Source of the DNA: Escherichia coli
GTDB lineage: Bacteria; Pseudomonadota; Gammaproteobacteria; Enterobacterales; Enterobacteriaceae
DNA length: 64,000 nucleotides
Assembly: GCF_030384885.1 (NCBI RefSeq)
Contig: NZ_CP128613.1
Reading direction: 5' to 3' (one strand)
A program made the position numbers. This document shows positions 1-12,000 of the stretch, piece after piece. Within the stretch, counting starts at the first letter, position 1; each line of letters starts with the position of its first letter.

Positions 1-3000
1 TATAAAGGGGATAGCCAACAATAACCCCACGACTCATCTCAATTATCTCGCCCCGACCTGGCTAAGTCCCAGCCCGGTCTCTTGCAGTCGCGTTCACGCC
101 TGAATGACTTCTCCTGAACTTAAGTCTCAGACCTATTTGGCCGGTAATCCCTCTCAAATTTGCTCATTTTGCGTTCCACCTTCCATCACCCTGTAACAGA
201 CCCAGCCATTTTCTGCGTAATTGTGATTTGAGTTGTAAAACACAGATCAATATCTGTGTTTTAAAGATTTGGTGTTGACCTCAAAAATCATGTGGGTAAG
301 TATGATGGCCATCTAAGCAAAACAAAACACAGAGGATGACGCAATGAAAGCACTGGCTCGGTTTGGCAAAGCCTTTGGCGGCTACAAGATGATCGATGTC
401 CCACAACCCATTTGTGGCCCGGAAGATGTGGTGGTTGAAATTAAAGCTGCGGCAATCTGCGGCGCAGACATGAAGCACTACAATGTCGATAGCGGTTCTG
501 ATGAGTTTAACTCTATCCGCGGCCATGAGTTCGCAGGTTGTATTGCGCAGGTTGGTGAAAAAGTCAAAGACTGGAAAGTGGGGCAACGCGTCGTGTCGGA
601 TAACAGCGGTCACGTTTGCGGCGTTTGTCCGGCCTGTGAACAAGGTGATTTTCTGTGTTGTACAGAAAAAGTAAACCTTGGTCTGGATAACAATACGTGG
701 GGCGGTGGTTTTTCCAAATATTGTCTGGTTCCTGGTGAAATTCTCAAAATTCATCGTCATGCGTTGTGGGAAATCCCTGATGGTGTTGATTATGAGGACG
801 CAGCCGTACTTGACCCTATCTGCAATGCCTACAAATCCATCGCGCAGCAATCGAAATTCCTCCCTGGTCAGGATGTAGTCGTCATCGGCACTGGCCCACT
901 CGGGCTGTTCTCCGTACAAATGGCGCGGATTATGGGGGCGGTAAATATCGTCGTCGTTGGTCTACAAGAAGATGTGGCGGTCCGCTTCCCGGTTGCAAAA
1001 GAACTGGGTGCGACGGCTGTAGTAAATGGTTCTACCGAAGATGTGGTGGCGCGCTGCCAGCAAATTTGTGGCAAAGACAATCTGGGACTGGTGATTGAAT
1101 GCTCCGGTGCCAATATCGCATTGAAACAAGCCATCGAAATGCTCCGCCCGAATGGGGAAGTGGTACGCGTTGGCATGGGCTTTAAACCTCTTGATTTCTC
1201 GATTAATGACATTACCGCCTGGAACAAAAGCATCATTGGGCATATGGCCTATGACTCCACCTCATGGCGTAACGCTCTCCGGCTATTAGCCAGCGGCGCT
1301 ATCAAAGTCAAACCGATGATCACGCATCGTATCGGCCTGTCGCAATGGCGCGAAGGGTTTGATGCGATGGTCGATAAAACTGCAATCAAAGTGATCATGA
1401 CTTACGACTTTGATGAATAACTACTCTCCTGAAGGAACGTTATCGCATGGAACAGATAACAAAACCGCATTGTGGTGCACGGCTGGATCGCTTACCGGAT
1501 TGCCGCTGGCATTCGTCAATGTTTGCCATCGTCGCGTTTGGCTTGCTTGTCTGCTGGAGTAATGCCGTTGGTGGCTTGATCCTCGCGCAGCTGAAAGAGT
1601 TGGGCTGGACAGATAATTCCACCACTGCCACATTCTCAGCAATTACGACCGCCGGAATGTTTCTCGGTGCGCTGGTTGGCGGCATCATCGGTGACAAAAC
1701 CGGTCGCAGAAATGCATTCATCCTCTATGAGGCCATTCATATTGCCTCGATGGTTATCGGTGCTTTTTCACCGAATATGGATTTCCTTATTGCCTGCCGT
1801 TTTGTGATGGGCGTTGGGCTGGGAGCTTTACTGGTGACGCTGTTTGCTGGTTTCACCGAATATATGCCCGGTAGAAATCGCGGAACATGGTCCAGTCGGG
1901 TTTCCTTTATTGGCAACTGGTCATATCCGCTCTGTTCATTGATTGCGATGGGACTCACGCCGCTGATTAGTGCAGAGTGGAACTGGCGAGTACAACTGCT
2001 TATCCCTGCAATATTGTCGCTTATCGCTACGGCGCTGGCCTGGCGCTACTTTCCTGAATCCCCGCGCTGGCTGGAATCGCGCGGACGGTATCAGGAAGCC
2101 GAGAAAGTCATGCGGAGTATAGAAGAAGGCGTCATACGCCAGACGGGTAAACCTTTGCCGCCCGTGGTTATTGCTGATGACGGTAAAGCGCCACAAGCGG
2201 TGCCGTATTCAGCCTTACTGACAGGAGTATTACTGAAACGCGTGATATTAGGTTCTTGTGTGCTGATTGCCATGAACGTTGTGCAGTATACACTAATTAA
2301 CTGGTTGCCAACGATATTCATGACCCAGGGGATTAATTTAAAAGACTCGATTGTTTTAAATACCATGAGTATGTTTGGCGCGCCATTTGGTATTTTTATT
2401 GCCATGCTGGTGATGGATAAAATTCCGCGTAAAACAATGGGTGTGGGGCTATTAATCCTGATTGCGGTGCTCGGATATATCTATTCACTGCAAACCAGTA
2501 TGTTGCTCATAACGCTGATTGGTTTCTTCCTGATTACTTTCGTCTATATGTACGTTTGCTATGCCTCGGCAGTGTATGTCCCTGAGATCTGGCCGACAGA
2601 GGCCAAATTACGTGGCTCCGGTCTGGCGAATGCAGTAGGGCGAATCAGTGGTATTGCCGCACCTTATGCCGTTGCAGTGCTGCTCAGTAGTTATGGCGTA
2701 ACGGGAGTCTTTATTCTTCTGGGGGCGGTTTCAATTATTGTCGCAATTGCTATCGCCACCATTGGAATTGAAACCAAAGGTGTCTCCGTTGAAAGTTTAA
2801 GTATTGATGCAGTAGTCAATAAATAATACTGGTGGATTCAAGATGAAAAATTCAAAAGCAATATTGCAGGTGCCGGGCACAATGAAAATTATTTCAGCAG
2901 AAATACCTGTGCCTAAAGAAGATGAAGTTTTGATTAAAGTAGAATATGTCGGTATTTGTGGTTCAGATGTACATGGTTTTGAATCAGGCCCGTTTATTCC

Positions 3001-9000: not shown

Positions 9001-12000
9001 TTTTTGGCATCGAAACGCGGAAGGTGTCGCTGGAAGAGATTTCTGAGGTGAATTAAATCTTTCGTTGATGGCGTCAATTGCCAGATGTACCACTGACGTG
9101 TTTTATCTGGCCTACAATGGCAGTACAGAATTGTAGGCCAGCATAAAATTACTCCTGCGTCTCTTCCCAGTCTGCCAGCGTATATAGCGTTGCCCCAGCT
9201 GCTGACATCTCCATAAACGCGTGCGCACTGTCCTGTGGCTGGATATTCACGCCACGACAACCATCGGTAATCACATTAACCTTATAACCTAACTGTAACG
9301 CGTCCAGCACGGTAAACTTCACGCAATAGTCAGTAGCCAGGCCCATAATGATCAATTCATCGATTTCATGATCGCGTAACCAGTCATCGAGCGTGGTTTT
9401 CTGCCGACGGCCGTTATCAAAAAAGGCACTGTAACTGTCAACTAAAGGATTTTCGCCTTTATGGAACACCGCTGCGATCGCTTTTTGGTTCAGTAACGGA
9501 TGTAATTGTGCGCCTTCACTGTTCTGCACACAGTGATCTGGCCAGAAGGTTTGTGGCAAACCGTCGAGTTGGCCTGGCGTATAAGGCTCTACACCGTGCT
9601 GACTGGCAAAACTGCCGTGATTCGCCGGGTGCCAGTCTTGACTGGCGATAACCGCTTCACCGCGCGACTGGCACCAGTCAATCAGGCGGTTAGCGACATC
9701 CACCGTACTGTCACCTTCCGGCACGGCGAGCGCGCCACCAGCACAGAAATCATTTTGTAAATCGACCAGTAACAGGGCGCGAGGGGGCATTGCAGTCTCC
9801 TTAATCATCCGGCGTCAGTTCGCCGCGCAGGTTTTGGCTCATGGCCTTGCGAATGGTTTCAGTATCCAGTTCCTGGCTAAGCAGGTAATGCAGTTTGGTT
9901 AGCGTAGCTTCTACTGTCATATCAGCTCCACCAATGACGCCGGCATGGGCGAGGGCGTTACCAGTGGCATAGCCACCCATGTTCACTTTGCCGGACATAC
10001 ATTGTGTCAGGTTGACTACCACAATTCCGCGATCGCTGGCTTCTTGTAATTCTTGCAGGAAGGCTTTGTTTTGTGGCGCATTACCCACGCCATATGAGCG
10101 CAGAATCAATGCTTTCACCGGTTGGCGCAGAAAATTGCGCACGACGTCAGCAGAAATCCCCGGATAAATCGTCACTACGCCAATTGGTTGTGGGGTGATT
10201 GGATGAACGATCAATTCCCCTTCACCGTGCGGGGCGGGGGGCGTATTCAAACGACGAATATGGATACCTGCTTCCAGTAACGGAGGAAGGTTTGGAGAGG
10301 CAAACGCATCAAAACCATCGGCATGGGCTTTGGTGGTACGGTTGCCACGATAAAGTCGATTATTAAAAAAGAGAGTTACTTCGTTGATAGGATAATTCGC
10401 CGCAACGTACAACGCATTCAGCAGATTAATTTGTCCGTCAGAGCGTAACTCAGCCAGCGGGATTTGTGACCCTGTCACAATGACCGGTTTACCGAGATTC
10501 TCGAGCATGAACGACAGCGCAGAGGCGGTATACGCCATCGTGTCGGTGCCGTGCAGAATGACAAAACCATCATAGTCGTCATAATGCGCTTTAATATCTT
10601 CAGCAATATGCTGCCAGTCTTCTGGCGTCATATCTGAAGAGTCCATCAGCGGCGTATATTCATGAATGGTGAAATCTGGCATCTCCGGGCGATGGAATTC
10701 CGGCATCAGCGCCAGTTGGCGTTGTAGATGACCTGACACCGGAATATAACCCTGCTCGGAACGCTGCATCCCGATGGTCCCGCCCGTGTAGGCGACGTAA
10801 ATTGATTTCTTTTGCATGATATTGATATGAATGATATCGAAAGAGCAAAAGTATATACGTGAGGGGCAGCGAGCGCACCTGGATACTCTGTGGATATGAG
10901 AAAAGTCCGGCAGAACGGAGGGATTAGTGTCCAGCCGGAGAAAAGTGGTTAATCCTGCAACGCATAGGTTACGGTGGTGACTACGCGTACCGTTTTATTA
11001 ATCGCCGTAGGATCATCTTCATCACTGCCACTGGCGAAGATCTGGAACACGCCTTGTGAGGCATCGCTAATTGACCCCACCTGGCTACCTGAGTCCGTTG
11101 CAAATTGTAATGCTGCGTTGCGTGCATCTTTGGTGGCGGCGGCAATCATCTCAGCGCGCAGTGCGCCAATACCATTAAAGCGATAGGCGACTTTGCTCTC
11201 AGCGATAGCGCCCTCCGTAGCGACTTGCAGTTCGTTTAATTTCGCGACGACTTTTTCGACAGCAGCAACATTATGGGTTTTTATCGTCACTGACCCGTCT
11301 GCGTTATAGCGTGGCATTGTGGGATCATCTTTCAGATAAAAGGAATCTGTTCGCTTGCTTGTCCATTGGCCCTGGGTTATCTCTTTCTCGTTAATCCCCT
11401 GAGCATTGAGTTCGGCAACAATTTTTTTCTGCGCGTCTTCCAGTTTCGGGAACAGTTCGCCGGGAATATTACCCTTAAAGTTAATCGCAATTGTTAATTC
11501 TGCCGTATCTGCGCGAACTTCTTTTTCAGAAAGCCCACGCACATTTACATAACGGTTATTGGTTTTTAAATGTTTAACACCATCGCCAACAAAATAACCA
11601 CAGGCGCTAATCCCCAGTCCGAGGACGATAGCGGCAATTAAAGAGGGGGCCTTATTCACTGATGACTCCATATCAGATGCTAAATGAGCAAGGGAATGTA
11701 GTGGAGAGAGGGAGTGAAAGACAGTCCGATTCAGGAGTGTGGCCGACAGCATATCGGCCACATTTTTGCAGGATTTAACGCACGTTGGCGCAGGTCAGGC
11801 AAAACGCATAACGGTTTTGTGGGTCGTTAAACGCTGCCAGCTTGTCGCTTTCACTTTTAACGGTAGAGGCTACCGAGGCCAGCGGTGCAGGTAACATGGC
11901 CTGGAACGCATCTGGCAACATTGCCCGGACAGAACCAGACATATTGTCCATCACTTTGTCGAAGAAGGTCGGTTCATCAACGTAGTATTCCAGATGCCAC

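Follow-up and report, generated by a model that had tools for sequence, protein, structure and literature searches.

The ydjLKJIHGFE cluster of Escherichia coli is probably a mobile catabolic module for an acidic polyhydroxy compound

The ydjLKJIHGFE cluster is one of the few complete-looking catabolic clusters of Escherichia coli K-12 that lack a known nutrient. We analysed the copy carried by a 64,000-nucleotide (nt) stretch of E. coli DNA (contig NZ_CP128613.1 of assembly GCF_030384885.1, here called the window), and we propose, with a probability of roughly 0.7, that the cluster is a self-contained, horizontally mobile catabolic module for an acidic polyhydroxy compound. Its substrate is probably an aldonate- or 2-keturonate-type sugar acid of at least six carbons, available in animal guts. 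An acidic natural substrate is favoured by the preference of the kinase and aldolase of the cluster for a carboxylate in vitro, by the resemblance of the kinase, YdjH, to IolC, by the relatives of the dehydrogenase YdjJ, and by the pattern of transporters.

Results

The locus is the already known E. coli ydj orphan cluster and is not new. Eight intact open reading frames on the plus strand, annotated ydjL, K, J, I, H, G, F and E, occupy positions 344-9056 of the window. They cover b1776-b1769 of K-12 MG1655 over 100% of the query at 97.5-100% DNA identity, and their products are 98-99.7% identical to those of K-12. Gene order and neighbours are also those of K-12, with yeaC upstream and pncA-ansA downstream. 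Pfam assigns two ADH_N/ADH_zinc_N dehydrogenases, two MFS_1/Sugar_tr permeases of the major facilitator superfamily (MFS), a class II F_bP_aldolase (E = 9e-89), a PfkB kinase (6e-73), an Aldo_ket_red protein (6e-66) and a regulator with HTH_DeoR and DeoRC domains. Diagnostic catalytic motifs are present in both dehydrogenases, the kinase and the aldolase. The original prediction, made before any database search, had described eight co-directional genes with these domains, and the reading frames, the Pfam matches and the identity to K-12 bear it out. Its further claim, that the genes form a complete toolkit for transport, oxidation, phosphorylation and cleavage with no established substrate, is supported by gene content and by the literature; a published growth substrate and inducer were looked for in full-text articles, and neither was found. 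We read the minus-strand open reading frames inside the eight well-supported genes as spurious, and an Rfam scan of positions 1-12000 found no RNA family.

YdjH is a PfkB-family kinase, with GG at residue 41, DTIGAGD at residue 254, the PS00584 signature and a Pfam score of 246 bits, and it matches 3H49 and 3IN1, which are structures of E. coli YdjH (E = 8e-205). The nearest characterised kinase family is IolC, which acts on a keto-acid sugar; YdjH scores 140.6 bits against the TIGR04382 cut-off of 300 and is therefore not a member, and the E. coli ydj locus carries no iol annotation. YdjI is a class II aldolase by both PF01116 (298 bits, cut-off 25.5) and TIGR00167 (323 bits, cut-off 215.6), and it matches the structure 6OFU, entitled 'YdjI aldolase' (E = 1e-185). 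It carries Asp81-His82, His178 and His206, which, by residue numbering and not by alignment, we take to be the catalytic and metal positions of AgaY (D82, H83, H180 and H208). YdjI falls below the models for the tagatose-1,6-bisphosphate aldolases GatY and KbaY (NF006626, 246 of 384 bits; NF009374, 239 of 383; TIGR01858, 225 of 443), and the ydj cluster has no gene for a GatZ/KbaZ-type partner. Two studies from the Raushel laboratory in 2019, as summarised in a later paper (PMC9602453), found that YdjH and YdjI favour long-chain monosaccharides with a carboxylate end. RefSeq names ydjH and ydjI of K-12 after their in vitro substrate; ydjL, J, K, E and F are still 'putative' there.

The two dehydrogenases, YdjL and YdjJ, are zinc-dependent members of the medium-chain dehydrogenase/reductase (MDR) superfamily, with the GHE signature PS00059, a catalytic cysteine, a four-cysteine loop and a GxGxxG motif; in YdjL these include Cys39, a structural-zinc cysteine cluster at 92-106 and GTGPLG. 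The best NCBIfam and PDB matches of YdjL are L-threonine 3-dehydrogenases, with NCBIfam scores below the curated cut-offs. YdjJ matches 5VM2, the structure of E. coli YdjJ itself (E = 1e-231), followed by ketose reductase 1E3J, sorbitol dehydrogenases, L-arabinitol 4-dehydrogenase, xylitol dehydrogenase, RspB and L-idonate 5-dehydrogenase. Its nearest relatives (sorbitol dehydrogenase, ketose reductase, RspB and IdnD) oxidise the hydroxyl beside the terminal CH2OH of polyols or aldonates. Neither protein belongs to the L-threonine 3-dehydrogenase, L-idonate 5-dehydrogenase, GatD, IolM or RspB equivalogs of NCBIfam: the best scores are 216 bits for YdjL and 205 for YdjJ against a Tdh cut-off of 380, and all other models are also below cut-off.

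YdjG is an aldo-keto reductase that belongs to the NCBIfam equivalog NF049922, NADH-dependent methylglyoxal reductase (628 bits, cut-off 550), a match that does not establish its physiological substrate. The original prediction had named in vitro activities, on unusual keto-sugar substrates, for YdjI and YdjH. Both are indeed reported, and activity of YdjG on methylglyoxal is reported as well.

Related loci were collected by a scan with YdjI, taking one genome per species, and 80 of at least 148 were examined. The order L-(K)-J-I-H-G-F is kept in Enterobacterales, Lachnospiraceae, Clostridium, Megamonas, Veillonella, Anaerococcus, Atopobiaceae, Erysipelotrichaceae and Synergistaceae; in Gilliamella the ydj genes are present and rearranged, and the same block stands in unrelated contexts in Agarivorans, Sebaldella and one other genome. 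The enzymes are nearly always present together (L in 78 of the 80 loci, J in 79, and I, H and G in 78 each), followed by F (69), K (58) and E (25). YdjI is 74-97% identical among these loci. Between E. coli and Firmicutes, Fusobacteria or Actinobacteria, YdjI, YdjL and YdjJ are about 75-87% identical; in typical Lachnospiraceae loci the values are about 82% for YdjL, 63-80% for YdjJ, about 67% for YdjH, about 63% for YdjG and about 54% for YdjK and YdjF. Identities of about 75-87% are well above what is usual for vertically inherited orthologues between phyla, which suggests relatively recent transfer between phyla among mostly gut-associated bacteria. By these comparisons, ydj looks like a compact mobile module found mainly in gut organisms. 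No conserved glycosidase, lyase or isomerase accompanies the cluster in these 80 loci and three further related ones, and the lack of a conserved glycosidase or lyase nearby suggests that the substrate is a free small molecule. An AlsE-like ketose 3-epimerase gene lies between ydjL and ydjK in 31 of the related loci.

The two permeases, YdjK and YdjE, are 44% identical over their full length and are members of the MFS. Their top NCBIfam subfamily is that of the aromatic acid/H+ symporters (TIGR00895), with 148 and 156 bits against a cut-off of 418, and the sugar-porter subfamily (TIGR00879) gives 63 and 78 bits against a cut-off of 238, so neither subfamily can claim them. These scores lean, and no further than that, towards organic-acid carriers rather than sugar porters. 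Where YdjE is absent from a related locus, the partner is usually a gene for an SDF sodium:dicarboxylate symporter (30 of the 80 loci) or a Liv-type ATP-binding cassette (ABC) system (10 loci), and in one locus a Liv-type system is inserted between ydjH and ydjG. Together with the acid-symporter-like scores of the MFS permeases, these partners fit an acidic substrate. Untargeted metabolomics has tentatively tied YdjE to the export of 3-phenyllactate and acetophenone, and mutants shift 3-phenyllactate export (PMC10971958). We also considered ydjE as a NiaP-type niacin transporter linked to the adjacent pncA, and rejected this idea: YdjE matches no NiaP model and is a paralogue of YdjK, and cluster-negative E. 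coli lack ydjE along with ydjL-F. Moreover, Budvicia, Symbiopectobacterium, Enterobacillus and Agarivorans keep ydjE with the cluster in surroundings from which pncA is missing.

Within E. coli the cluster is a variable element. The first 11 kb of the window are matched, at least in part, by 5,425 of 5,426 complete E. coli genomes, and 4,257 (78%) carry at least 80% of this length. Most of the remaining genomes match only pncA-ansA (9144-10903), and positions 1-9143 are wholly unmatched in about 21% of the complete genomes. Because cluster-negative genomes lack the entire block, all eight genes behave as one unit of gain and loss; in such genomes yeaC directly abuts pncA (for example in the one designated L003). 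G+C content is 0.42-0.51 within the block and 0.49-0.53 outside it. The right junction lies beside a palindrome resembling a repetitive extragenic palindromic element, CTGGCCTACAATG...GTAGGCCAG, downstream of pncA (about 9100-9150 in the window and 8940-8990 in L003), which cluster-positive and cluster-negative genomes share. The cluster is rare in phylogroup B1, according to PMC9602453.

YdjF belongs to the DeoR/GlpR family (HTH_DeoR, 62.6 bits; DeoRC, 167.8 bits; both above cut-off), and its gene adjoins the enzyme genes in 69 of the 80 related loci. A stretch of about 130 nt in front of ydjL is conserved in 20 Enterobacterales loci. It holds a TGTGA-type box (221-240), a perfect 18-bp palindrome that matches CACAGAT-N4-ATCTGTG exactly (241-258), a -35-like TTGACC (275-280) whose TTGAC (275-279) is invariant, and a further CTGTGTTT box on the minus strand (325-332) that overlaps the Shine-Dalgarno sequence. 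A simple promoter scan upstream of ydjL found no site and the -10 element is not confidently placed; conservation is what locates the ydjL promoter here. The TGTGA at 221-240 resembles a CRP half-site, but the second half is a direct and not an inverted repeat, and we do not claim a CRP site. As a separate observation, base 228 of the window is T within the conserved TGTGATC box, where strain 2013C-4282 and nearly all other aligned genera have C.

Before ydjF, CTGTGATT boxes stand at 6721-6728 and 6734-6741, followed by a -35 element TTGAAA (6755-6760), a 17-nt spacer and an extended -10 element, TGcGATAAT, ending at 6783. This is the best sigma-70-like site in positions 1-9400 (10 of 12 positions plus the TG), and its blocks are conserved across Enterobacterales. 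The consensus CTGTGWTT occurs seven times in the window, and five of these sites fall within the promoter regions of ydjL and ydjF. The box was derived from E. coli and then counted in other bacteria: in front of the ydjL orthologues of organisms other than Enterobacterales it occurs 1.63 times per kb, compared with 0.079 per kb in the remainder of those loci, an enrichment of about 20-fold, and it often adjoins TTGACA there. CTGTGWTT is thus a candidate YdjF operator that would travel with its regulator.

The genes from ydjL to ydjG are separated by 26, 16, 20, 4 and 9 nt, followed by 136 nt before ydjF and 117 nt before ydjE. A hairpin in the second of these longer gaps, GCGGCAA-gtgaat-TTGCCGC, keeps its stem through compensatory changes (CGGTAAA/TTTACCG in Yokenella and CGACAG/CTGTCG in a Citrobacter), and a consensus scan classes it, on the minus strand, as terminator-like. 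The hairpin may act in partial termination, in attenuation or as an RNA stability element. Given the conserved promoter in front of ydjF and the conserved hairpin ahead of ydjE, the locus probably comprises two or three transcription units (ydjLKJIHG, ydjF and ydjE) and not one operon. A fusion to the ydjL 5' region rises more than 2-fold when rho is mutated, which suggests that Rho terminates transcription prematurely there (PMC7815308), and in the mouse gut the ydjL promoter reliably switches on (PMC6561318). In K-12, a GalR operator-like site is predicted about 30 nt into ydjI (1857732-1857747), with no regulatory effect reported (PMC5110547); in the window it falls at about 3930-3945, inside ydjI.

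Discussion

How might these proteins work together? In the route that we propose, the paralogous permeases YdjK and YdjE would carry the acid, and possibly also an acidic product, across the membrane. YdjJ and YdjL would then oxidise secondary alcohols and so create a keto group beside the terminal CH2OH, a 2-ketose end. YdjH would phosphorylate the C1 hydroxyl of this end and YdjI would cleave the resulting ketose-1-phosphate to dihydroxyacetone phosphate (DHAP) and a shorter aldehyde-acid, two steps for which the literature describes in vitro activity. YdjG may reduce an aldehyde, either the cleavage fragment or an incoming aldose or uronate. Finally, YdjF would repress PydjL and its own promoter through the CTGTGWTT boxes and would be released by a phosphorylated intermediate, most likely the product of YdjH.

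Several known systems share parts of this logic. In the lower myo-inositol pathway of Bacillus subtilis, as Yoshida and co-workers reportedly described in 2008, IolC phosphorylates 5-dehydro-2-deoxy-D-gluconate and the class II aldolase IolJ releases DHAP and malonate semialdehyde. The ydj route would be alike in that a PfkB kinase acts on the CH2OH beside the keto group of a keto-acid sugar and a class II aldolase then yields DHAP and an aldehyde-acid. It differs in having two zinc-dependent dehydrogenases and an aldo-keto reductase, and in its in vitro preference for fully hydroxylated acids of 7-9 carbons. Pfam families of inositol dehydrogenase, dehydratase, hydrolase and isomerase are absent among the scanned neighbours of the related loci. 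The galactitol (gat) and N-acetylgalactosamine (aga) systems of E. coli (GatD, GatYZ and GatR; KbaY/AgaY and AgaR) likewise have a zinc-dependent medium-chain dehydrogenase, a DeoR-type repressor and a class II aldolase from the Pfam family of YdjI. The E-values of YdjI are about 1e-70 against the models for tagatose-bisphosphate aldolase and 5e-49 against AgaY (1GVF). However, those systems rely on phosphotransferase system (PTS) uptake, bisphosphate substrates and a GatZ/KbaZ subunit, whereas ydj has MFS permeases, a 1-kinase and no Z-type subunit.

The aldonate 5-dehydrogenase routes (IdnD for L-idonate, LgoD/YjjN for L-galactonate, RspB, and L-gulonate 5-dehydrogenase) oxidise the penultimate hydroxyl to give a 2-keturonate and also pair a zinc-dependent medium-chain dehydrogenase with an MFS acid permease. 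The E-values of YdjJ are 2e-54 for the RspB model and 1e-52 for that of IdnD, and YdjJ also matches the structures 4ILK and 6DKH, but the scores of YdjJ and YdjL are far below the equivalog cut-offs of these routes. Moreover, these routes continue by reduction and dehydration to Entner-Doudoroff-type intermediates and not by C1 phosphorylation and aldol cleavage. In the fungal oxidoreductive pathways for pentoses and D-galacturonate, an aldo-keto reductase and sorbitol-dehydrogenase-type MDRs interconvert aldose, polyol and ketose before a kinase acts, and L-arabinitol 4-dehydrogenase and xylitol dehydrogenase are among the closest structures to YdjJ. Unlike ydj, the fungal pathways end at xylulose-5-phosphate or pyruvate and have no DHAP-forming class II aldolase. 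By this comparison, the logic of ydj would be an IolC/IolJ step grafted onto aldonate-dehydrogenase chemistry, which would work like IolC/IolJ without being a member of that system.

A number of points weigh against an acid-catabolic module. The searchable literature assigns the cluster no growth substrate, inducer or natural substrate and describes no growth phenotype, and the 2022 paper PMC9602453 calls the pathway 'only partially determined'. The best substrate of YdjH and YdjI, L-glycero-L-galacto-octuluronate (or its 1-phosphate), has 'no natural abundance' according to that paper. The roles of YdjL, YdjJ and YdjF are putative, and the YdjF operator is a candidate despite its strong enrichment. 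TCDB and Pfam group both permeases with sugar transporters, TCDB listing YdjE under the sugar porters, and their scores against every NCBIfam transporter subfamily are below cut-off, so the leaning towards acids is slight. Lastly, four related loci have CUT1-type ABC transporters, which usually take up neutral sugars.

The last two points also favour the main alternative, namely that the cluster breaks down a neutral compound, either a rare sugar or a polyol (for instance a hexitol, a heptitol or a rare ketose). Here oxidation of a polyol would give a ketose, which would be phosphorylated at C1 and then split into DHAP and a neutral aldehyde that YdjG reduces, as a non-PTS analogue of galactitol or sorbose catabolism. 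The kinship of YdjJ to sorbitol dehydrogenase, ketose reductase, and L-arabinitol and xylitol dehydrogenases is what such a pathway would predict, and the AlsE-like epimerase of 31 loci also suits it. However, the in vitro preference of YdjH and YdjI for a carboxylate terminus speaks against a neutral substrate. The permeases reach only 63-78 bits of the 238 required of sugar porters and score higher with the acid symporters, and the commonest partner transporters are dicarboxylate symporters and Liv-type ABC systems. We therefore regard a neutral substrate as unlikely.

If the substrate is acidic, could a natural compound resemble the octuluronate preferred in vitro? One candidate is an acidic sugar of C7-C8 length, released in the gut from the glycans of bacteria or plants; derivatives of Kdo and Ko, the octulosonic acids of lipopolysaccharide and rhamnogalacturonan II, are examples. 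By our own stereochemical reasoning, Kdo oxidised at C7 and read from C8 would share with L-glycero-L-galacto-octuluronate its chain length, its terminal carboxylate and the left-right-right configuration of C3-C5. Two dehydrogenases and a reductase would suit the task of shifting the keto group away from the carboxyl and over to the end that bears the CH2OH. This more specific proposal is speculative, and we rate it a little below even the neutral polyol. If it is true, ydj would be the first dedicated catabolic route for such acids, and this route would have spread horizontally through gut Proteobacteria, Firmicutes, Actinobacteria and Fusobacteria.

Two further readings are very improbable. 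The cluster could be a stress or detoxification module, directed at reactive aldehydes such as methylglyoxal or at acid or osmotic tolerance: YdjG reduces methylglyoxal, overexpression of ydjK has been reported to improve growth in high salt, and ydj genes are reported to be over-represented among lactic-acid-resistant E. coli. However, a kinase, a DHAP-forming aldolase, two permeases and a DeoR regulator of the sugar-phosphate type make a catabolic layout, methylglyoxal needs neither kinase nor aldolase, and the association with acid resistance tracks phylogroup and may be hitch-hiking, as the cluster is rare in B1. Equally far-fetched is a cryptic, decaying remnant with no current function in E. 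coli, since its absence from about 21% of complete genomes, insertion sequences within the region in some strains, an early stop in ydjH of the closest genome and the want of a reported laboratory phenotype are set against eight intact genes that are 98-99.7% identical to K-12, promoter and operator elements conserved across genera, a promoter that fires in the mouse gut, and 74-97% enzyme identity across phyla, which indicates strong purifying selection.

Why does the substrate matter? Its identity would define a nutrient niche relevant to colonisation and cross-feeding, would explain the presence/absence polymorphism of the cluster in E. coli, including its rarity in B1, and would make a defined gut biosensor of PydjL and YdjF. 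What is added here is modest: a candidate operator, a transporter pattern of the acid type and conservation across phyla, all of which focus such experiments.

Feature coordinates and strain-variable neighbours

Table 1. Features of the ydj locus, in window coordinates.
Feature	Position	Strand	Assignment	Basis
Variable block	1-9143		Extent of the block wholly unmatched in about 21% of complete genomes
ydjL promoter and candidate operator region	221-338	+		Conservation, box matches
ydjL	344-1420	+	Zn-dependent medium-chain dehydrogenase, most like L-threonine 3-dehydrogenase	Pfam, motifs
ydjK	1447-2826	+	MFS permease, YdjE paralogue	Pfam MFS_1/Sugar_tr, NCBIfam
ydjJ	2843-3886	+	Zn-dependent polyol/ketose dehydrogenase, sorbitol-dehydrogenase type	PDB matches, motifs
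ydjI	3907-4743	+	Class II (Zn) ketose-phosphate aldolase	Pfam, TIGR00167, PDB 6OFU
ydjH	4748-5695	+	PfkB-family 2-ketose 1-kinase	Pfam, PDB, motifs
ydjG	5705-6685	+	Aldo-keto reductase, reported NADH-dependent methylglyoxal reductase	NF049922, Pfam
ydjF promoter region	6703-6783	+		Promoter scan, conservation, box positions
ydjF	6822-7580	+	DeoR/GlpR-family regulator, presumed cluster repressor, GTG start	Pfam
Hairpin GCGGCAA-gtgaat-TTGCCGC	7644-7663	+	Between ydjF and ydjE	Compensatory changes
ydjE	7698-9056	+	MFS permease, YdjK paralogue	Pfam, NCBIfam

Some genes beside related loci may hint at the fate of the fragment other than DHAP. One Blautia locus has a glycerate kinase gene and a gene for a xylose-isomerase-like TIM-barrel protein (5596-7607 of locus L046) directly upstream of its ydjL orthologue. 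In a Lachnospiraceae locus (L048), genes for a rhamnulokinase-like FGGY kinase, a FucA-like aldolase and a TIM-barrel protein follow a Liv-type ABC transporter, and four others (L049, L055, L057 and L059) have at least some of these three downstream. About five Lachnospiraceae loci adjoin an amino-acid-type module (aminotransferase, RraA-like aldolase, glutamate-dehydrogenase-like, 5-oxoprolinase and LysR genes), which, like the glycerate kinase of a single locus, we rejected as a clue to the substrate because it is too sporadic.

The complete genome closest to the window over its first 11 kb, that of strain 2013C-4282, differs from it at four bases (228, 2168, 4372 and 5681). At 5681 it has a T that changes GAA to TAA, so that ydjH ends four codons early, which accounts for its shorter ydjH annotation; the gene in the window is full-length. 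Compared with K-12, seven of the ten amino-acid differences in YdjE fall within residues 215-248, and the other seven proteins have only 2-5 scattered differences each. An IS3-family or ISKpn26 insertion sequence is annotated inside the matched ydj region in some E. coli genomes, and at least one lists several MFS fragments, so the cluster appears to be occasionally inactivated as well as deleted. Finally, a gene for a SIMPL-domain protein (10949-11761, minus strand) lies between ansA and sppA in the window. The matches of K-12 and many other genomes end at 10903, and in these genomes nothing is annotated between ansA and sppA, which makes the SIMPL-domain gene a second small, strain-variable insertion adjoining the ydj block.

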